Virus genome (UHGV): UHGV-0027971 | Strand: one strand, 5' to 3' | Length of the DNA: 43,269 bases | Source of the DNA: a virus | In this document: in pieces, positions 490-43,209 of the stretch | Layout: each line of letters opens with the position of its first letter | Numbering within the stretch: position 1 is the stretch's first letter | Program-made: the position numbers and the translations under genes | The notes under the pieces: model-generated | Databases searched by the model: none | What the model saw: only the letters and a program-made list of their open reading frames with translations | Told to the model about the DNA's origin: nothing

Positions 490-1119
490 TTAAACCATGG
501 TCTGTTCAGCGTTAAATTTCTCAAGATAGACTTCCATTTCGCGAGTCCACCTAGGGGTAGGTACCGAGGTGATCATTAGCCAAGGAAACCACCATACAAG
601 CATGAAGAGTAACATAAGCGGTGCGATCATTTCGGCCGAAGAATGAGAAACTATATACATAATGAATAATATTAGTAGAACTGTGTTTACAATCTGACCT
701 ACCAGAAAAAGACGCCAGCGAAAACAATGCCATTTCCTGTTGAACACAATCCGTCCATCCCGTTCTTCGAGCCAGTTACGCCACGGCTTGAGATAACCAG
801 CCCGCAACCCATAACGATCACACATTATTACAGCCAAATCCTGCAGCCGATAATTATACAAGCCTGTGAGCCGATAAAGGCTGCGCTGACGAAGCTCACG
901 CTTTGCCAGACGGACCGCATTTTTATTCGAATATGGCTGTGTCAGCATTTGCTCTAGCCGGCGCTTCCTAAGATTGAGTAGTCCACGAAATACACTTCCA
1001 GATTCAGCATTAATTACTCTGTGACGAACTACACCGAGTGCAATATAGATACACAGCAATAGCCAGCCGGTCTTAGGGTATTGATTCATCCATTGTATAA
1101 TTACAGACAACTCAGGCAC
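490..1119 (-). CDS. hypothetical membrane protein (209 aa, hydrophobic segments near N-terminus and at residues ~140-185)
   Basis: Long ORF in the track; no family recognised by eye. Confidence 0.45.
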   Translation of the reverse strand: MPELSVIIQWMNQYPKTGWLLLCIYIALGVVRHRVINAESGSVFRGLLNLRKRRLEQMLTQPYSNKNAVRLAKRELRQRSLYRLTGLYNYRLQDLAVIMCDRYGLRAGYLKPWRNWLEERDGRIVFNRKWHCFRWRLFLVGQIVNTVLLILFIMYIVSHSSAEMIAPLMLLFMLVWWFPWLMITSVPTPRWTREMEVYLEKFNAEQTMV

Positions 1120-1242: not shown

Positions 1243-2433
1243 CTACTTACTAGTCCATTCATCAATCATATTCGCCCAATCTTGTAGCATCTCAGCCCTC
1301 TGCTCACGATATTCTGCCTTGTTATAAACAGCTCGTACCCCTTTTTGTTCATGGGCAAGGCTCTTCTCAATCCAGTCAGTATTGTACCCGGCCTCATGTA
1401 GCAAGGTGCTGGCTGTACGCCGTAAGTCATGGGGACCAAACTTAGGCAACAACTCCCCTTCTTTCTGAGCCAGGCGATACGTCAGTGTCAAAACCCGGTT
1501 TAAAGTAGCGCTACTCATTGGCGCATCGGAATCGTACCGCGAAGGAAGGATAAAATCAGAGCTACCGGCAAAGGTTTTGAGAGCAATCATAATATCCATT
1601 GCCTGTCTGGAAAGAAAAACCAAATGTGGATTACGTCGTTTCATCCTTTCCTTTGGTATCGTCCATAATGCCTCACTAAAATTGATCTCGTTCCAGGTTG
1701 CGTTAGTAAGCTCACTTTTACGTACCATCGTTAACAGCAAAAGTTTAACCGCTGCTCTGATTGATGGCGTCGTTCCTACCCGTTCCATGTACCGATACAT
1801 CAGACCAATTTCAACTGGCGTCAATGCCCTGTCTCGAGGCTCAAATTTCGCTATGCTTGCAGGCCGTACCAGATCAGCAGGATTCTCCACCTTCTGACCG
1901 CGCTCAATAGCCCAGCGATAGACTTGCAATACAATCTCTCTAGCGTGTACAGCTGTCGCTGGTGCCCCTCTCTCGACAATGTTATCGGTTAATGCGCGTA
2001 AGTCCTCATGTGTAATCTCACTAAGTTTCTGCTGGGCAAATTTTGACTTCAACTCCCTTTGATATACCGAACGCCGCATATCACGCGTCGATTCAGCCAT
2101 TTGATAACCGCGTAACCATTTCTCAGTCCACGCACCAAAAGTCTCCGCATCTTTAATACGCGCTTTATCTCTGGCTTTTTCCCTCGCAGGCGATATTCCA
2201 CTGGCAACCATTTTTTTGGCTTCATTGAGCCGTTCACGCGCTTCTGCAAGCGTGATCCCTCCAACACCATAGCGGCCAAAAGTAACAGTCTCCTGTCTTC
2301 CGTTTATTGAATAGTTATAACGAAATGAAATAGTTCCAGCCGGAGTGACCGCAACATACAGACCATCACGGTCATTAACTTTATAGAGTTTCTCCTTCGG
2401 CTTAAGGTGATGCAGCCTGGTGTCAGTCAACAT
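1243..2433 (-). CDS. int: tyrosine recombinase / integrase, P4-type (element 1)
   Basis: 396 aa; N-terminal MLTDTRLHHLKP..LYKVNDRDGLYV and C-terminal HDLRRTASTLLHEAGY..WIEKSLAH..GVRAVYNKAEY motifs typical of P4/CP4-57-like integrases; paralog of 41752..43002. Confidence 0.9.
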   Translation of the reverse strand: MLTDTRLHHLKPKEKLYKVNDRDGLYVAVTPAGTISFRYNYSINGRQETVTFGRYGVGGITLAEARERLNEAKKMVASGISPAREKARDKARIKDAETFGAWTEKWLRGYQMAESTRDMRRSVYQRELKSKFAQQKLSEITHEDLRALTDNIVERGAPATAVHAREIVLQVYRWAIERGQKVENPADLVRPASIAKFEPRDRALTPVEIGLMYRYMERVGTTPSIRAAVKLLLLTMVRKSELTNATWNEINFSEALWTIPKERMKRRNPHLVFLSRQAMDIMIALKTFAGSSDFILPSRYDSDAPMSSATLNRVLTLTYRLAQKEGELLPKFGPHDLRRTASTLLHEAGYNTDWIEKSLAHEQKGVRAVYNKAEYREQRAEMLQDWANMIDEWTSK

Positions 2434-4762: not shown

Positions 4763-4948
4763 CTATTCATCTTTGGTAACAGAGGCGCTATCAAACCAGT
4801 CTGTCGCTACCTCATCATCAACCGAATAAGTTATAACGTATTTCACTGGAGTATCTTTCATTACCGTATACCCGATTACCTCTCCGGCAATGCCTGGGAT
4901 ACCATTAACAGATACCGTAACCATTTGACCAATATTTATAATGCTCAT
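4763..4948 (-). CDS. hypothetical small protein downstream of the tailspike
   Basis: 61-aa ORF abutting the tailspike stop (ATGA overlap). Confidence 0.4.
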   Translation of the reverse strand: MSIINIGQMVTVSVNGIPGIAGEVIGYTVMKDTPVKYVITYSVDDEVATDWFDSASVTKDE

Positions 4949-7245
4949 GACGTCACCGTAAAATTAAATAATAATGAATCGGTAGAAGAAGCCAGCCATA
5001 AAGACTGAGTTTTATTTTTCGGAGCTTCAATCAAATCCATTGATGCTTTTGCAGAGCAATAAAACCCGTAATCTCCTGTTGCAGCTATTGAAATCTCAAC
5101 CAGATGATTAGCATTTATTGCAGCTGTGATAGAGGGAGTTGACGTAGTTTCAGCATCCCAGTTATCCCATTCGTGAGATAGTATCCTTGCGCCGGTAGCC
5201 CAGTTGTCATTGACAGTACCATTTGAGATCAGCACCACAGCCCTGATGCGAGAATATTTTTGCGTCGTCCTTGTTCTGAGGAACGCTGTAACATTAACAA
5301 TTGCAGCGTTAAATCCACCGACAACACCGAAAGTCCAGAGAGTTTTACTACTGTTGACCCCGGCACCGGATGCGACAGGAGGAAAATCTGTGGTTATTTT
5401 CCCAATACTCCCTGTATTAATGATTCTTGGGGCATATTTAAATTCGGCAGGGACCACGGTATTAGCCCCAAGAACAAATGCCATGGATGATGCCCTTAAT
5501 TTGTTGCCTGTTACGTTAGGATGGGTATCATCATTCATCCACCCTTTTGATACGGCGTTTTCATAAGTACCTAGGGTCTGCCTGTCATCAAAATAGTAAT
5601 AGCCATTATTCAAAGCAAAATTTCTCCTGGCTATCCTGTAACTCTCTACGGCACTAGCATATTTGGGGTTAGTCGTCTTACTTGTTTCCCCTGGTTCAAC
5701 TATTAGCGCAACCGACGATGATGGTTTTATCATATTGGTATATGTTATCAAATCCGCCTTAAACTGCTCAACAGTTCTCCCTTGCCCCATATCATTAGTT
5801 CCCGCATTAATAACAACTAAAGCAGGGTTTAATGCAGCTTTCCATTTCGAAATAAAAACAGAGTCCTGCGATACAAACTCATCAAGTCGCCTGCCGCCAC
5901 GTGCAATTGTTGCTGTTCTTATACCTCTTGGGTTTGGTGTATATATAAAATCAAGTGCAAAAATAACTACATTACCGGTAATTTCTGAAAGTGTGATGCT
6001 GGAGGCATTTGTCGCATCTCTGAATACAGAAATAACGCCAAGATCCAAATCGGCGTTACTGTTAACGCTAGTCACAGTGCCGCCTGCCGTTATATTAAAG
6101 CTACCACCACCTGATTGTTTTAAATAATACAAATTACACTTATCCCATGGCAATTTGGGATCAGCGCCAGCTTGCTCAGTACCACTTGCTGAAGGCCATT
6201 GAATACCTCTACCAGCAGGAGCATATTTTGCTGGGGTAGCATTCATCGGTAAATCTCGTAAACTGGTGAATGTTCCTAAAGCATAAAATGCCTGATCACC
6301 TTCTATCTGAAAGGCCGCTTGATCAAAAGCATAAAATCCAGGTCCACCATAATCAAATGATGAATGCAGAAGTATTTTCAGGTATCTAACATAATTGGTG
6401 TTACCTGCCCCCTCATTAAGTGAATCAATGCCAAACTGAATCAGGCCTCCGGTTTGTAAAAGATAAGCAAGTGGATTATTTTTAACATATGAATTTACAT
6501 CCATTCGATCTAGTGTTGCTCCTACCGTTGTTTCATGAAACCCTGACAAGTTAGCGCCTGTAGGTTTTGCAAGTTGGATCAACACATCAGAAGCGCTACC
6601 AGGAATGGCAGGGACAGGATTTGGTTCACCATAATCGTTGAAAGTGAAAACTGTATTTTTCCTTACGTCCACAGAAGGAAGAAAAGATATTTCATCTTCA
6701 GGTACTCTCACCGTCCTTTTAAACAAATTCTCAGAATGCTGATTATTACTTGAATCTCCGGCATCTACATAATTCTTTGTTGCAGCATCCTGTGCCTGTG
6801 ACGGGTCACGCAGATTACGAATGCGGTTGTTGAGTGCGTCGTAATAGCTCGCGATGAACGACGGCTTACGCAGCGCCAGGCGGAGAAAGCTGAAGCACTG
6901 CTGGATAAGCATGGTCAGCTTGTCGAATGCATCCTCATGCACCTCTGCGAAAAATTTCCCCTGGTTACGCAGATCAGTCTCCTGGGTAACAGGCAAGTCA
7001 CGTGAGATAGAGATTTGCCATCCGTTGGCCAGAGGTGACATCAACACAACGCTCCCACCTGAATAGCTTCCCGCCCCGGTAACTGAGTAATCGGTATCTA
7101 AAGTCAGAACTGTAATATTTTCGTTAAGGTCAGCGACCTGGACAGTGAGATCTGACTTCTTGAAGATGCGAAACGTGTACGGGAAAGATGTGGTAACGCC
7201 GTTCCCTGTGTAGTCGTTATGGTCGACTTCGGTTGAGACCGTCAT
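4945..7245 (-). CDS. tailspike/tail fibre protein with SGNH (GDSL-like) hydrolase domain
   Basis: 766 aa; N-terminus MTVSTEVDHNDYTGNGVTTSFPYTFRIFKKSDLTV typical of podovirus tail-fibre head-binding domains; C-terminal part has SGNH-like blocks (VVINAGTNDMG, NDDTHPN). Confidence 0.8.
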   Translation of the reverse strand: MTVSTEVDHNDYTGNGVTTSFPYTFRIFKKSDLTVQVADLNENITVLTLDTDYSVTGAGSYSGGSVVLMSPLANGWQISISRDLPVTQETDLRNQGKFFAEVHEDAFDKLTMLIQQCFSFLRLALRKPSFIASYYDALNNRIRNLRDPSQAQDAATKNYVDAGDSSNNQHSENLFKRTVRVPEDEISFLPSVDVRKNTVFTFNDYGEPNPVPAIPGSASDVLIQLAKPTGANLSGFHETTVGATLDRMDVNSYVKNNPLAYLLQTGGLIQFGIDSLNEGAGNTNYVRYLKILLHSSFDYGGPGFYAFDQAAFQIEGDQAFYALGTFTSLRDLPMNATPAKYAPAGRGIQWPSASGTEQAGADPKLPWDKCNLYYLKQSGGGSFNITAGGTVTSVNSNADLDLGVISVFRDATNASSITLSEITGNVVIFALDFIYTPNPRGIRTATIARGGRRLDEFVSQDSVFISKWKAALNPALVVINAGTNDMGQGRTVEQFKADLITYTNMIKPSSSVALIVEPGETSKTTNPKYASAVESYRIARRNFALNNGYYYFDDRQTLGTYENAVSKGWMNDDTHPNVTGNKLRASSMAFVLGANTVVPAEFKYAPRIINTGSIGKITTDFPPVASGAGVNSSKTLWTFGVVGGFNAAIVNVTAFLRTRTTQKYSRIRAVVLISNGTVNDNWATGARILSHEWDNWDAETTSTPSITAAINANHLVEISIAATGDYGFYCSAKASMDLIEAPKNKTQSLWLASSTDSLLFNFTVTS

Positions 7246-7330: not shown

Positions 7331-7346
7331 CTGTGAATTCGAACAG
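7331..7346 (+). promoter_or_regulatory. candidate second SOS-box-like site (CTGTGAATTCGAACAG)
   Basis: CTGT-N8-ACAG spacing, but the spacer is not the usual AT-rich sequence. Confidence 0.3.
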
Positions 7347-7401
7347 ATATTACCTTTCAGGTAATTTTCAAAACGTGCTGGATAGCAAATAAATTATTTG
7401 A

Positions 7402-7421
7402 TACTGTATAAATATACAGTT
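7402..7421 (+). promoter_or_regulatory. LexA (SOS) box TACTGTATAAATATACAGTT overlapping a promoter (-35 TTGATA at 7398..7403)
   Basis: Near-consensus CTGT-N8-ACAG with AT-rich spacer, 20 bp upstream of the 7441 start. Confidence 0.75.
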
Positions 7422-7440
7422 ATTGCATGGAGAAGATAAG

Positions 7441-7698
7441 ATGCAGCAGTATCACTATCCACTGGAAGAGGGATTTACCGAAAGGATTCACACGCCGGGA
7501 GGCGTCAGGTCACTGGTGGAGGGATCGCACTTGATGAAATTACTCCGGGATCTCGATAAGGATGGATTTAATGTCGATGGCCCACTTGCCGAACTGACTG
7601 CACTGATTAACTACGTCACCAGCTCACAGATGTCTATGCGGGATCTGCAAACACATCTCGACTATTGTGCCGAACAATTACGAAAACAAACCCGGTAA
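7441..7698 (+). CDS. SOS-regulated small protein, stand-alone homolog of the shared antirepressor C-terminal module (Tum-like role inferred)
   Basis: 85 aa from ATG 7441 (RBS GGAGAAG; track start 7423 is a forced TTG). Aligns with the C-termini of the proteins at 9345, 11074 and 41064 (IH.P.GV..L.E.S.LM.LL...DG..V.G..AELT...Y......RD.QTH..Y). Confidence 0.6.
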   Translation: MQQYHYPLEEGFTERIHTPGGVRSLVEGSHLMKLLRDLDKDGFNVDGPLAELTALINYVTSSQMSMRDLQTHLDYCAEQLRKQTR

Positions 7699-7705
7699 AT
7701 TTAAA

Positions 7706-7721
7706 GGCCGCAAGAGCGGCC
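7706..7721. terminator. hairpin terminator between convergent genes
   Basis: GGCCGC-aaga-GCGGCC followed by a T-rich tract; between the 7441..7698 (+) and 7721..8449 (-) 3' ends. Confidence 0.55.
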
Positions 7722-8449
7722 TATCGTTTCGCTTTGTGCTCATCCCAGCACGTTTTGCACCATGCCATTAAACCATCCGCATTTTGATTATTAGGGTAAA
7801 AGCTGGTTCGTTTTCTGCGGACATTACAAATTGGGCACCACTTCATATGGCGTGTATTCTTTGGGCCATCGAGACACCTTGCACACCACTTAGTCAATCC
7901 ATCTGGATTTTTTGACGATTTCCTGAATTTTTCATATGGAAGGTTTATTCTGCATCGCAAGCACTGCTTGCTACCACTTGAAACTCTGTTAGCTGATTCT
8001 TCTTTTGGCGGCGATACAGAAGGTATTCTTGCTGGCTCTGATACTGCCTGAGGTGCTTTTTTAGATGACTGAGACGATGTGTCATCACCAGGGAATCTTC
8101 CATGATATGCCGGACGCGTTGACACTCCAGGTGGAAGCTCTGCTGTAAATGGCTTTGGCTGAATCAGTTGCCTCTCTTTTGCTAACTCCTGCTGTTTATA
8201 ATATGTCTGGATTACCGCACTATCATAAGCAGGAGGTGCGGAAATATTAGGCGCATTACCTCCAGTTTTTTGAAACTGAGTAGAGGTGTGTTCTATCACC
8301 TGTGTACGATTAATCGTTATCTCCCCATCTTCGGTCTTTATCGTTTTGTTATGATTTACGACCGTACGATCAGAGATCTTAGTCTTGTTCTGGTTGATAA
8401 CGTAAATAATCACCGCAACCACACCAACAACTATCCAGAAAACTTCCAT
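7721..8449 (-). CDS. hypothetical membrane-anchored protein with two C-terminal zinc-ribbon-like motifs
   Basis: 242 aa; N-terminal hydrophobic helix, low-complexity S/P-rich linker, then CLRC..(x20)..WCARC and CPIC..(x20)..WCKTC. Confidence 0.5.
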   Translation of the reverse strand: MEVFWIVVGVVAVIIYVINQNKTKISDRTVVNHNKTIKTEDGEITINRTQVIEHTSTQFQKTGGNAPNISAPPAYDSAVIQTYYKQQELAKERQLIQPKPFTAELPPGVSTRPAYHGRFPGDDTSSQSSKKAPQAVSEPARIPSVSPPKEESANRVSSGSKQCLRCRINLPYEKFRKSSKNPDGLTKWCARCLDGPKNTRHMKWCPICNVRRKRTSFYPNNQNADGLMAWCKTCWDEHKAKR

Positions 8450-8604
8450 TGCTTTTCCTCACAATAACATTACCTTAAAGGTAATATCTTGCTTTCAGGT
8501 GATCAAGCATTAAACTCCATCAACCAAATACGGTTGATTTTGATATTTATTCTCGCTTATCATTACCTTTGCGGTAAATTTACATCGCACTCCTCTTGTG
8601 CCAT

Positions 8605-8690
8605 AGTAATCAGGCACTGGCAAAATCCAGTGCCGGGATTGGCGTCCCGGATTACTAGTAGGCGCATACCACGCCAGACGTGGTTTTTTT
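8605..8690 (+). ncRNA. candidate structured small RNA or leader element ending in a rho-independent terminator
   Basis: Outer stem TAGTAATC/GATTACTA enclosing hairpins GGCACTGG-caaaat-CCAGTGCC and CCGGGA-ttggcg-TCCCGG, then terminator CCACG-ccaga-CGTGG + T7 (8669..8690). Function unknown. Confidence 0.3.
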
Positions 8691-8845
8691 ATGCGTATAG
8701 CACAGTCATATCCGAATTATGGTGGGCTGGGCAGGGGCACCGAAAGGTGCGCCGGTACCTACTAGGCCGGTACGCCAACCTTGTCCAGTTCACCACCAGC
8801 AATTGGCGTTGCGGTGGTAGGTAACTTACTAGTAGAGGTATCGCT

Positions 8846-9352
8846 ATGCCAGGCCAAAAAATCTCAAACGACGATCTGTATTGGTTAATTTCTAATTCTC
8901 CACTCCTTCTTATGCTAAGGCAAGAAAGTGCACCACTGGTCAGTGAATTGATTAGCTGTAGAAATAGAATGTGGGATGAAGGGGCAGATTTAGATACCAA
9001 TTTGTTTGATCATCTTATGCAACTAGCAGTCGATAACAAGGCAAAACTACGCTCTGAATACAACGCTTATCCAGAAATAGCAAAATACCTTAACGCTGAA
9101 ATACTTGGTGGACCAGGTCAACCAGACCTAAAAACAAAAGATGGTTACCCTGTTGAGGTGAAGGTAGATACTTTTTCTCCTTCAGCATTAAAACAATTAT
9201 TAAGGTATATGGATGCTTCTGGCGCAGATTTTGGTTTTGCTTGTGCAAAAACTCTTTCTGTAAAACTCCCTGAAAACATAAAGTTCATCCAGTTAGATTA
9301 TAAAGATAATTGCTATTTCGTCGTGAAAGATGGAGGCAATGAAAATGCGTAA
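8846..9352 (+). CDS. hypothetical protein (168 aa), possible PD-(D/E)xK-like motif
   Basis: ORF with RBS GAGG; sequence KDGYPVEVKVD resembles a D..E.K nuclease core but this is a weak by-eye guess; AT-rich. Confidence 0.5.
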   Translation: MPGQKISNDDLYWLISNSPLLLMLRQESAPLVSELISCRNRMWDEGADLDTNLFDHLMQLAVDNKAKLRSEYNAYPEIAKYLNAEILGGPGQPDLKTKDGYPVEVKVDTFSPSALKQLLRYMDASGADFGFACAKTLSVKLPENIKFIQLDYKDNCYFVVKDGGNENA

Positions 9353-10064
9353 TATAGCTATTGATAAGTTGCCGATAACAACTCATTGCAACATCCCTGT
9401 AATGACTACAGAAATGCTTGCTGATTTGTATGACACAGAACCCAAACTGATTCGTCAAAACTATCAACGAAATGCAGATCGATTCATTGAGGGAAAACAT
9501 TGTTTCAAGCTGATAGGCGAAGAATTACGAGCATTTAAGAACGAGTCCTCTCAAAGAGGTTTGCTTAATATTGCACCAAAAGTAAGTCATCTTTTCTTAT
9601 GGACCGCTCGCGGTGCAGCACGACATGCGAAAATTCTTGAGACTGAAAAAGCGTGGGAGGTCTTCGAAAAACTGGAAGATTGCTACTTCGACAGAAAACC
9701 CGCAAATGTCAGTGGAGATGTTCGTCTCTCAGGTGGAGCTGATTTATCAAAGGCCACTCAGGTAATTGAAAAATTCATGCCCGCCATTATGGAGGCGATC
9801 AAGCTGGAAGACAAAAAAGAATACAGCGCCCCACTGAAGCCCGGCTACCGCAGCCTGATTCACTCGCCGTCGGGTGTTCTCGGCCTGACGGAGCACTCAC
9901 TGCTGATGAATCTGCTGAATCAGTTGCAGGAAGACGGGCACGACGTATCGGGCGCGGCGGCGGAACTGACCACCATGTTCTGCTACATCGTCGGTGTGAG
10001 TAAATGCCTGCGTGATATCCAGACGCACGCGGAGTACATCAACGACAAGGCAGGGTTCTTCTGA
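9345..10064 (+). CDS. antirepressor-like protein (ORF6N-type N-terminal domain + shared C-terminal module)
   Basis: Start taken at ATG 9345, 8 nt after GGAGG (track start 9330); C-terminal ~95 aa near-identical to those of 11074..12012 and 41064..41720. Confidence 0.7.
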   Translation: MRNIAIDKLPITTHCNIPVMTTEMLADLYDTEPKLIRQNYQRNADRFIEGKHCFKLIGEELRAFKNESSQRGLLNIAPKVSHLFLWTARGAARHAKILETEKAWEVFEKLEDCYFDRKPANVSGDVRLSGGADLSKATQVIEKFMPAIMEAIKLEDKKEYSAPLKPGYRSLIHSPSGVLGLTEHSLLMNLLNQLQEDGHDVSGAAAELTTMFCYIVGVSKCLRDIQTHAEYINDKAGFF

Positions 10065-28835: not shown

Positions 28836-28912
28836 GTGGCATTAGCTCAGTTGGACAGAGCAACCGCCTTCTAAGCGGTTGGTCGCAGGTTCGAATCCTG
28901 CATGCCACGCCA
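28836..28912 (+). tRNA. tRNA-Arg (anticodon UCU)
   Basis: Cloverleaf by eye: acceptor GTGGCAT/ATGCCAC, D-arm TAGCTCAGTTGGACAGAGCA, anticodon stem ACCGC/GCGGT with loop CTTCTAA, T-arm GCAGGTTCGAATCCTGC, discriminator G and CCA. Confidence 0.85.
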
Positions 28913-34691: not shown

Positions 34692-35511
34692 CCCACACCT
34701 CATCTATCCAGTCAGTGTTATTCCAGTCAAGCTCATCGCTTTTCCCGGCATTTTTTGATTTTCCCCTGATATGATTTACGTGCCTGGCGAATTTTTGTTC
34801 CCACTGAACCTGCGTGAACACTTTGCCCTCAGCCATCCAGTAATCCCGGAATGCAGCAAGTTCAGCAGGTGTAAATTCCGGTTCCGGCAGGGCCGTTCCC
34901 CACAGCGCAGCACGCCGCCGAAAATCTGGCGACGGTAGCCAGCCATCTGTCATCGGAAATTTCCCGATGGGTTCACTCAGGCCATCCAGAAATTCAGGTT
35001 CTGCCACCTGCAACGGCGTACTGTTCGCTTCACTGGTCGGAGCACCCTCGCGCACGTGCGCTATGTGTGGGGTTTTATATATATCTTCCTCTTCCTCTTC
35101 CTCTGGTAACTCCTTTTGTAACGCTGTTGGCGTTACTTTTTGCGTTACTCGTTTTCGATGCTCTGCCACTCTTCTATTCGTAAGTGCACGTTTTTTCGAT
35201 GATTCTCCATTGTGTCGCTCAAAGTTTGGAAGAATTAGTTTGCCGTCATGATAAGCAAGCCATCCGACGCTAATGAGGGCGTCAGCAAATCCTGTAATAA
35301 AAGCGAGTCTATCAAGTACTCCTTTTGTAACGCTGCCAGCGTTACCGTCTATTGTTTGCTGGTCAGCCCATGCCCATATACGAACCAGCTTTCCAAGAAC
35401 AGCATCTGGATCAATACCCAGAATTTCTGCTATCTGAAAAATTTCAGGTTTATCAGGAGTGATAACTTCAACCTTAATCCAGCTGCTTGCCATAGGTTTC
35501 CCCTCTTGCAC
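34666..35511 (-). CDS. replication initiator (lambda O-like position)
   Basis: 281 aa, directly upstream of and overlapping the P-like gene; acidic linker EEEEEED; C-terminal DWNNTDWIDEVWDEI reminiscent of the lambda O C-terminus. Confidence 0.6.
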   Translation of the reverse strand: MQEGKPMASSWIKVEVITPDKPEIFQIAEILGIDPDAVLGKLVRIWAWADQQTIDGNAGSVTKGVLDRLAFITGFADALISVGWLAYHDGKLILPNFERHNGESSKKRALTNRRVAEHRKRVTQKVTPTALQKELPEEEEEEDIYKTPHIAHVREGAPTSEANSTPLQVAEPEFLDGLSEPIGKFPMTDGWLPSPDFRRRAALWGTALPEPEFTPAELAAFRDYWMAEGKVFTQVQWEQKFARHVNHIRGKSKNAGKSDELDWNNTDWIDEVWDEINSRTS

Positions 35512-35686
35512 TCTTTAGTGCACAAGCAAATTCATTACGATGGCGGTTGGCGCTATTCATTGCACATTCAACACATGTTCCGTTCAGAACATACCTTTCA
35601 GAGAGATGGCCGTGACGGCACCGCTTTCCTGTGAAATAGCGATTTAACCCGGCTTTTGCGGCCTCCATTCTGGTTACTATCTTCAA
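35474..35686 (-). CDS. hypothetical small Cys/His-containing protein between cro-like and O-like genes
   Basis: 70-aa ORF from TTG preceded by SD AAGGGG; motif CRHGH..CVEC; overlaps the O-like start. Confidence 0.35.
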   Translation of the reverse strand: MKIVTRMEAAKAGLNRYFTGKRCRHGHLSERYVLNGTCVECAMNSANRHRNEFACALKSARGETYGKQLD

Positions 35687-43192: not shown

Positions 43193-43209
43193 AATCATTC
43201 CCACTCAAT
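43193..43209. repeat. att core direct repeat, right copy (AATCATTCCCACTCAAT) overlapping the guaA stop
   Basis: Identical to 2739..2755. Confidence 0.75.

Follow-up and report, generated by a model that had tools for sequence, protein, structure and literature searches.

The 43,269-nucleotide stretch analysed here (UHGV virus genome UHGV-0027971, hereafter the window) comprises a phiV10/ZX5-type Uetakevirus prophage of ~40.5 kb at guaA, beside the yfgI/guaA region, and encodes a 242-amino acid (aa) protein in which an N-terminal membrane anchor is combined with two C-terminal Cys4 units. The 242-aa gene is a real, conserved and uncharacterised prophage gene, and the linkage of its family to phage immunity modules is constant. 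The parts of the protein are known and its family has been catalogued, while the combination of these parts and their fixed place in immunity modules are new. We tentatively propose that the protein is a membrane-tethered binder of nucleic acid or protein, which may act in superinfection exclusion or abortive defence. Such a function would be consistent with the conservation of the architecture, the relatives of the zinc units, the accessory status of the gene, its immunity linkage and its predicted operator control.

The 242-aa protein belongs to phrog_6762 (PHROGs v4, unknown function; E 9.1e-150, 498 bits), with residues 1-242 aligning to positions 1-242 of the 242-position profile. As this family carries no annotation, membership is silent on function. 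Thirty-three homologues were found among 5.8 billion proteins, all from Enterobacterales, all annotated as 'hypothetical' and all with the same architecture. A profile search of 1.84 billion cluster representatives recovered 155 proteins at E ≤ 1e-10, among them tens of clusters of ~200-240 aa which match from residue 1 through to the end. The full architecture is kept at identities of 22-63 %, in Acinetobacter, Aeromonas and Marinobacterium as well as in the Enterobacterales. Among complete Escherichia coli genomes, 129/5426 (~2 %), including that of enterotoxigenic E. coli (ETEC) H10407, carry the gene, which is full length in 129/129 and always annotated as 'hypothetical'. No copy was present on 72,556 plasmids, and its occurrence among 50,697 GenBank phage records is limited to four kinds of temperate phage. 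In TL-2011b the gene is annotated only as a misc_feature but is intact; the possibility that it represents a pseudogene, raised by this annotation and by a tblastn alignment starting at residue 19, is ruled out by the intact open reading frame (ORF). Searches of IMG/VR with single distant proteins yielded only near-identical or zinc-unit-only loci. Scans of the 242-aa protein against Pfam, NCBIfam and PADLOC gave no family above threshold (PADLOC-DB 2.0: 0 families at E 0.1), and a literature search retrieved nothing on the gene, nor any solved structure for its family. Some distant members carry a faint precomputed Pfam label, YonG_N. A preliminary description, made from the DNA letters alone, had noted that the architecture matched no standard phage structural or regulatory protein, and the database searches agree, with no match to a characterised protein in Pfam, PHROGs, NCBIfam, PADLOC, the PDB sequences or the 5.8 billion proteins.

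The gene is preceded by a Shine-Dalgarno sequence (GAGGA, 8456-8460) 6-7 nt before its ATG, and has a GC content of 0.433, compared with 0.481 for the prophage. At its N-terminus, an AlphaFold model based on the family alignment places a transmembrane (TM) helix over residues 3-23 with a predicted local distance difference test (pLDDT) score of ~90, and residues 3-20 are hydrophobic. Only residues 1-2 (M-E) precede this helix, without a positive charge, while K22, K24 and R28 follow it. On the basis of the positive-inside rule and the need of Cys4 sites for a reducing cytoplasm, the topology is predicted to be N-out/C-in, with the zinc domain in the cytoplasm. The same arguments count against a periplasmic zinc domain, and the lack of a basic n-region and of an AxA-type site against a cleavable signal peptide, both of which were rejected on the sequence. 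The conserved juxtamembrane segment is modelled with low confidence as a β-hairpin (residues 30-51; strands 30-39 and 42-51). It is followed by a linker of ~100 residues, rich in P, S, A and Q, which has low pLDDT and is modelled as disordered, except for one predicted helix (residues 77-95), and which differs freely in length and sequence among the aligned homologues. Both the single N-terminal TM helix and the long low-complexity linker had been recognised in the preliminary description. The homologue in Yersinia phage YeP5 (L002 1987-2634), the annotation of which begins 29 codons too early, has a (KT)8 insertion just after the TM helix, in line with the predicted topology, and a homologue in an Acinetobacter contig (L107 1364-1934) has a KTT/AT-type repeat after the helix, partly masked by N. 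The juxtamembrane spacer thus seems to expand through in-frame repeat slippage.

The C-terminal domain (residues 160-242) is modelled confidently in the full-length protein (pLDDT >90). It contains CxxC motifs starting at residues 163, 189, 205 and 231, which form the two units C163-x2-C166-x22-C189-x2-C192 and C205-x2-C208-x22-C231-x2-C234, each with a tryptophan immediately before the second CxxC (W188 and W230). Two CxxC-x20-WCxxC units had been described initially; their number stands, while the spacing from the first CxxC to the tryptophan is 21 residues rather than 20. All eight cysteines and both tryptophans, as well as M1, are invariant in twenty-two homologues with identities down to 22 %, and the zinc motifs are therefore not due to chance. 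The invariant residues are K161, C163, C166, D183, G184, W188, C189 and C192 in unit 1, and K203, C205, C208, R212, D225, L227, W230, C231 and C234 in unit 2. The domain is very basic, with 20 K+R against 6 D+E (net charge ~+14). When the domain is modelled alone, each unit runs from a knuckle through a β-hairpin to a helix starting at the second CxxC and is a treble-clef-like finger, and the Cys4 units would be expected to bind zinc.

Because the disordered linker dominated the Foldseek comparison of the full-length model with the PDB, the C-terminal domain was modelled again on its own (pLDDT 89.8; predicted TM-score 0.70). The best PDB match of the full-length model, and the only one to stand out, was a marginal one to the Stc1 tandem finger (2LUY; probability 0.89, E 4.5e-3, TM-scores 0.14/0.32), with the low TM-scores reflecting a different relative orientation of the two units. 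The Pfam Stc1 family (PF12898) is likewise matched in two stretches, at 21.0 bits (E 5.1e-4), below the gathering cut-off of 24.8 bits, which is passed by a distant member of the family, P0182 (25.0 bits), and by multi-repeat relatives (29-61 bits). Stc1 of fission yeast resembles the 242-aa protein in having two consecutive Cys4 units with eight conserved cysteines, but it is a soluble eukaryotic adaptor in heterochromatin formation directed by RNA interference and has no membrane anchor. In PHROGs, the endonuclease VII, HNH endonuclease, primase and 'Lar-like' families are matched over the zinc units only. A fold search of the predicted viral structures in BFVD gave 39 matches at E ≤ 1e-3. 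At the top are phage 'Stc1 domain' proteins, together with zinc-finger proteins and HNH endonucleases encoded by giant viruses and phages, and single zinc units superpose at 0.3-0.4 Å. The unit also occurs in up to ten copies in large proteins with helicase or HEAT domains. A search of the PDB sequences with the family profile gave only marginal matches to XPA and PacI (E ~0.08).

By these comparisons, the zinc unit is a widespread Stc1-like module which accompanies HNH nucleases and other DNA enzymes in phages and giant viruses, and the unusual point about the 242-aa protein is the fusion of this module to an N-terminal membrane anchor. The Cys4 scaffold is shared with HNH/ββα-Me nucleases such as Hpy99I (3FC3) and PacI (3M7K) and with the N-terminal repeats of phage and giant-virus homing endonucleases. 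In contrast to these enzymes, the 242-aa protein is membrane-anchored and predicted to be non-catalytic, without a His-Asn-His motif. Neither His nor Asn is among the invariant columns, which are restricted to K, C, D, G, W, L and R, and no HNH or Endonuclease_7 Pfam match was obtained with the protein even at E 10. An active nuclease was rejected on account of this lack of catalytic residues and of a nuclease domain. For phage HNH nickases, a contribution of the zinc-ribbon domains to DNA recognition has been shown (PMC3592412), a finding which concerns zinc ribbons generally and not exactly the unit present here. The most economical reading of the zinc domain is that its role is non-catalytic and probably nucleic acid binding, although by analogy with Stc1 it may instead be a protein adaptor.

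The placement of the homologues ties the family to immunity. In nine loci, namely those of Aeromonas phage phiARM81mr, a lambdoid prophage (L097), Marinobacterium, two Acinetobacter genomes and four metagenomic contigs, the homologue lies directly downstream of an S24 (LexA-like) cI repressor gene on the same strand. Only 15-40 nt separate the two genes, and a larger intergenic gap comes after the homologue. These cI-linked relatives are distant (22-40 % identity), and their arrangement implies that they may be expressed in lysogens. The homologue of Oceanobacter is located tail-to-tail with cI, that of Acinetobacter corruptisaponis comes after an 87-aa Arc/Mnt-like gene, opposite a KilA-N gene, and that of Haemophilus lies beside a BRO-N/P22_AR_C antirepressor gene. 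In Serratia, Pectobacterium and other Enterobacterales, homologues are found in the antirepressor island of Uetakevirus-like prophages, while one is carried by a small integrative element. Comparison of the neighbourhoods revealed no conserved partner gene accompanying the family. In two Acinetobacter prophages (L103 5768-5971 and L107 2151-2333), the homologue is followed by a 60-67-aa ORF with a C-terminal TM helix, a possible lineage-specific partner which is absent from the window.

In the window itself, the link to immunity is provided by repressor-type operators. Nineteen matches to TTACC-N5-GGTAA with at most one mismatch were found in the window, against 0.78 expected, and eleven are exact (7350, 8470, 8563, 10885, 28499, 31618, 33795, 33857, 36150, 36862 and 36924). 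Two exact sites, at 8470-8484 and 8563-8577, are situated in the promoter region of the 242-aa gene, where the preliminary description had placed them. The sites are not specific to this gene but occur throughout the prophage: the repressor gene has a pair on either side (36102/36150 and 36862/36924), and further sites precede the antirepressor operon, the integrase gene (43045) and several other transcription units. Given this dispersal and the flanking of the repressor gene, the phiV10-type repressor most likely uses them as its operators, in an arrangement reminiscent of the many C1 operators of P1, and the set may serve as a ready map of the repressor regulon. The 194-aa repressor of the prophage, which is 99.5 % identical to that of phiV10/ZX5, probably binds the operator at 8469-8485. 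Overexpression of a repressor of this phiV10/ZX5 type blocked lytic growth (PMC9782041).

The -10 element (TACCTT) of the candidate promoter of the 242-aa gene corresponds to the left half of this operator and thus lies inside it. As the candidate scores below the threshold of the consensus scan, the assignment of the promoter is inferred. The TTGAnC-17-half-site layout is, however, kept in 5/6 lineages in which the intergenic DNA has otherwise diverged, and the distance between operator and ATG is 17-24 nt in every relative of the phiV10-like immunity type. In Providencia-type relatives, a different palindrome (TTAACC-N5-GGTTAA; three in the locus against 0.05 expected) occurs at the same place. 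The operator sequence thus varies with the immunity type while its position is fixed, which is good evidence that each phage's own repressor directly controls the gene. Since the operator overlaps both the -10 element and the start site, the gene is predicted to be off in the stable lysogen, and expression in lysogens of the present phage is doubtful. It would be switched on with the antirepressor operon at infection or induction. A rightward immI-type promoter (TTGATT-18-TATCAT) has its -10 element overlapped by the second operator, which lies 93 bp from the first.

In lambdoid phages, exclusion genes such as rexAB of lambda, nun of HK022 and stk of 933W are located in the slot from cI to the leftward early promoter, and in P22 sieA lies beside mnt in immI. 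The nine cI-linked relatives occupy the former slot, and the relative downstream of the Arc/Mnt-like gene and opposite an antirepressor-type gene has a sieA-like placement. Under the exclusion reading, the 242-aa protein would be a bitopic inner-membrane protein with its first two residues in the periplasm, one TM helix and the remainder in the cytoplasm, where the flexible linker would carry a basic, nuclease-free tandem Cys4 domain. This tethered domain would capture nucleic acid or protein at the cytoplasmic face of the membrane, the likeliest target being the DNA of a superinfecting phage or proteins arriving with it, and the outcome would be exclusion or abortive infection. In the present prophage, the operator-overlapped promoter would turn the gene on together with the antirepressor operon and keep it off in the stable lysogen. 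By position and logic, the protein may represent a one-polypeptide counterpart of lambda RexAB or P22 SieA. Its membrane part and probable nucleic acid-binding part parallel RexB and RexA, respectively; however, there is no similarity in sequence or fold to RexAB, only one polypeptide with one TM helix is involved, and, unlike rex, the window copy is not adjacent to the repressor gene and has a repressor operator over its promoter. P22 SieA, T4 Imm, HK97 gp15 and lactococcal Sie2009 are also small accessory proteins of the inner membrane, with genes in or next to immunity regions, but no homology to these was found, and the 242-aa protein differs from them in being mostly cytoplasmic and predicted to bind zinc.

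Several considerations weigh against an exclusion function. No similarity to known exclusion or defence proteins was detected, with the PADLOC scan giving nothing. Known injection blockers mostly use periplasmic or membrane-embedded parts rather than cytoplasmic zinc fingers, and small Cys4 modules have proteins as ligands no less often than nucleic acids; Stc1 itself is a protein adaptor. With its single TM helix, the 242-aa protein is also no obvious membrane-damaging effector. The main tension concerns regulation, in that the cI-linked relatives should be on in lysogens, while the present copy is predicted to be off at that stage and on early, an off-state which would be unusual for a classical lysogen-protecting gene.

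The period just after infection is common to both expression patterns, and is the sole condition shared by the cI-linked and the operator-controlled copies. It therefore keeps alive a second explanation, in which the protein is a regulator at establishment or induction that acts on a membrane-proximal host or phage component and tunes the lysis-lysogeny decision. The candidate components are FtsH/HflKC (compare lambda CIII), the division machinery (compare P1 Icd and lambda Kil) or a sequestered antirepressor, and the regulator would be made during the early period in which PRE-type cI transcripts coexist with active repressor-sensitive promoters. The operator over the promoter places the gene in the repressor regulon of the c4-ant operon, from which it diverges, and the genes next to it always encode regulators (cI, Mnt-like proteins, Ant and, under LexA control, an Ant-C-like protein). 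Furthermore, tandem fingers of the Stc1 type, the top PDB match, are protein adaptors. However, phiV10 and ZX5 have the same repressor and antirepressor set-up without the gene, which is therefore not a core part of the switch, and the very basic domain fits nucleic acid better than FtsH, division or antirepressor targets. The searches revealed nothing similar to CIII, Kil, Icd or anti-sigma factors; the zinc-binding anti-sigma factors (ZAS) have the zinc site first and then the TM helix, the reverse of the order in the 242-aa protein, which contains no H-x3-C-x2-C motif and has no Pfam zf-HC2 or RskA match. We consider such a regulator unlikely.

The layout of the protein also allows for a membrane anchor for the replicating or incoming DNA of the phage itself, organising replication or protecting the genome ends in the manner of phi29 p16.7. 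An N-terminal anchor, a tiny periplasmic part, a flexible P/Q-rich or helical spacer and a cytoplasmic globular domain are shared with both p16.7 and ZipA of E. coli. This is an analogy of layout only, as p16.7 and ZipA bind DNA and FtsZ, respectively, through unrelated domains. The p16.7-like order of anchor, spacer with a helical stretch and basic C-terminal module, the predicted early and repressor-controlled expression and the common occurrence of such zinc units in DNA enzymes would all fit a DNA anchor. This is nevertheless distinctly improbable, considering that co-transcription with cI in the nine lambdoid-type loci points to expression without phage replication, that close relatives lacking the gene replicate normally and that the gene is never found in replication modules.

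Even less probable is a counter-defence role, in which a membrane-located zinc-ribbon protein would neutralise host restriction or defence. Lar, a small zinc-ribbon protein of the Rac prophage, alleviates EcoKI restriction, and unit 2 matches phrog_5558, 'Lar-like restriction alleviation protein' (residues 201-241 on positions 7-47 of the 130-position profile; E 2.7e-9), while early expression would fit anti-restriction. The match is, however, to one generic zinc unit that scores better against endonuclease families, and no match to the Pfam Lar family (Lar_restr_allev) was obtained. A membrane anchor has no obvious use in anti-restriction, and linkage to the cI operon implies expression in the lysogen, where anti-restriction would be of little use. 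Finally, although the zinc units are of the HNH homing endonuclease type and the nuclease domain is missing, it is hardly conceivable that the gene is a functionless remnant of a decayed homing endonuclease fused by chance to a hydrophobic leader, given an architecture conserved at such divergence across genera with invariant Cys and Trp, intact copies in every carrying E. coli genome and a conserved promoter and operator.

The slot downstream of cI has repeatedly yielded exclusion systems (Rex, Nun and Stk), and an unstudied family fills it in at least nine unrelated prophages. A broader proposal, which we advance with still greater reserve than the exclusion function of the present protein, is that the 242-aa protein founds an unrecognised and widespread family of single-gene exclusion or abortive infection systems of γ-proteobacterial temperate phages. 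In these, a DNA- or protein-sensing tandem zinc finger would be tethered to the inner membrane, with the gene occupying the rex slot of lambdoid phages and rewired to a repressor-controlled promoter in Uetakeviruses. If exclusion is correct, a cytoplasmic zinc-finger sensor on a membrane tether would be a new type of mechanism, and would explain more of the prophage 'dark matter'; if the protein instead tunes the lysis-lysogeny decision, antirepressor-type immunity circuits would have a membrane-linked input of a new kind.

Table 1. Features of the 242-aa gene, its control region and the associated immunity genes in the window
Feature	Coordinates	Strand	Details
242-aa gene	7721..8449	-	ATG start, 242 aa plus stop; phrog_6762; bitopic membrane protein with two C-terminal Cys4 units
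N-terminal TM helix, residues 3-20	8390..8443	-	VFWIVVGVVAVIIYVINQ; hydrophobic; predicted N-out/C-in
Juxtamembrane segment, residues 25-55	8285..8377	-	SDRTVV..TIKTEDGEI.I.RTQV; conserved across the family
P/S/A/Q-rich linker, residues ~56-158	7976..8284	-	From composition, low pLDDT and variability
Zinc unit 1, residues 161-194	7868..7969	-	K-x-C-x2-C ... DG-x3-WC-x2-C; pLDDT >90
Zinc unit 2, residues 203-236	7742..7843	-	K-x-C-x2-C-x3-R ... D(G/K)L-x2-WC-x2-C; pLDDT >90
Terminator-like GC-rich hairpin	7705..7722	.	From terminator scan; common to both convergent genes
Operator	8469..8485	.	ATTACCTTAAAGGTAAT; perfect palindrome, 19 nt upstream of the ATG, overlaps the -10 element
Candidate weak sigma-70 promoter of the 242-aa gene	8478..8506	-	TTGATC 8501-8506, 17 nt, TACCTT 8478-8483
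Second operator	8562..8578	.	Core TTACCTTTGCGGTAA; 93 bp from the first
Convergent neighbour with LexA box	7404..7698	+	LexA box 7404-7419; 91-aa gene 7423..7698; phrog_450, resembles Ant C-terminal domain
Divergent immI-type leader RNAs	8601..8800	+	c4-a1b1 8601-8653, isrK 8614-8690, C4 antisense RNA 8715-8800
Unknown 168-aa ORF (orf168)	8846-9352	+	phrog_18738; GC 0.377; after the leader RNAs
BRO-N antirepressor	9330-10064	+	PHROG antirepressor match
Prophage repressor, 194 aa	36220..36804	+	Pfam HTH_3, no S24 domain

The att core ATTGAGTGGGAATGATT is found at 2739-2755 and 43193-43209 and is identical to the published Uetakevirus att core (PMC9782041), in line with the integration at guaA indicated in the preliminary description. 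That description had also placed the 242-aa gene in an accessory island, convergent with an SOS-regulated gene, and both points hold. The island lies between the tailspike gene (4945..7245) and the genes for the internal virion proteins, and the 242-aa gene is marked as accessory by its absence from phiV10 and ZX5, its presence in only some E. coli genomes, its own promoter and terminator and its lower GC content, while the convergent gene has a near-consensus LexA box upstream (CTGTATAAATATACAG). The hairpin between the two genes reaches with its stem into the stop codon of the 242-aa gene. A second CTGT-N8-ACAG box (CTGTGAATTCGAACAG) occurs at 7331-7346, ~60 nt upstream of the LexA box and 3 nt from the repressor-type operator at 7350-7364, and the region between the tailspike and LexA-controlled genes may thus integrate LexA and the phage repressor.

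On the other side of the 242-aa gene, the divergent leader RNAs were identified with Rfam scores of 76.7 bits for C4 (gathering threshold 45) and 68.1 bits for isrK (gathering threshold 50), the latter with its own terminator. A P1/P7-type immI module is thus present in a podovirus prophage, with a layout like that of c4-icd-ant in P1 and isrK-orf45-anrP in Gifsy-1. Besides the BRO-N antirepressor gene, the island also holds a P22_AR_N antirepressor gene.

Further observations concern other parts of the window. A second tyrosine integrase, of the P4 type (396 aa; 1243-2433, minus strand), is encoded beyond the prophage boundary, adjacent to the left att core. It suggests that the same guaA site also holds an integrative element in tandem, whole or as a remnant; the ORF beside the integrase gene (490-1119, minus strand) had no Pfam match. 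In the 766-aa tailspike (minus strand), a T7-tail-fibre-like N-terminus is followed by an SGNH/GDSL esterase domain (residues ~440-585), which suggests a deacetylating, receptor-destroying activity rather than that of a glycosidase. A 70-aa ORF of the early region (35474-35686, minus strand) encodes a zinc-ribbon-like Cys/His motif (C-R-H-G-H ... C-x2-C) unrelated to the two Cys4 units of the 242-aa protein. Finally, a tRNA-Arg(TCT) gene (28836-28912, plus strand) is located in the prophage between the structural and packaging genes, and one tRNA gene has been reported in phage ZX5 (PMC9782041).

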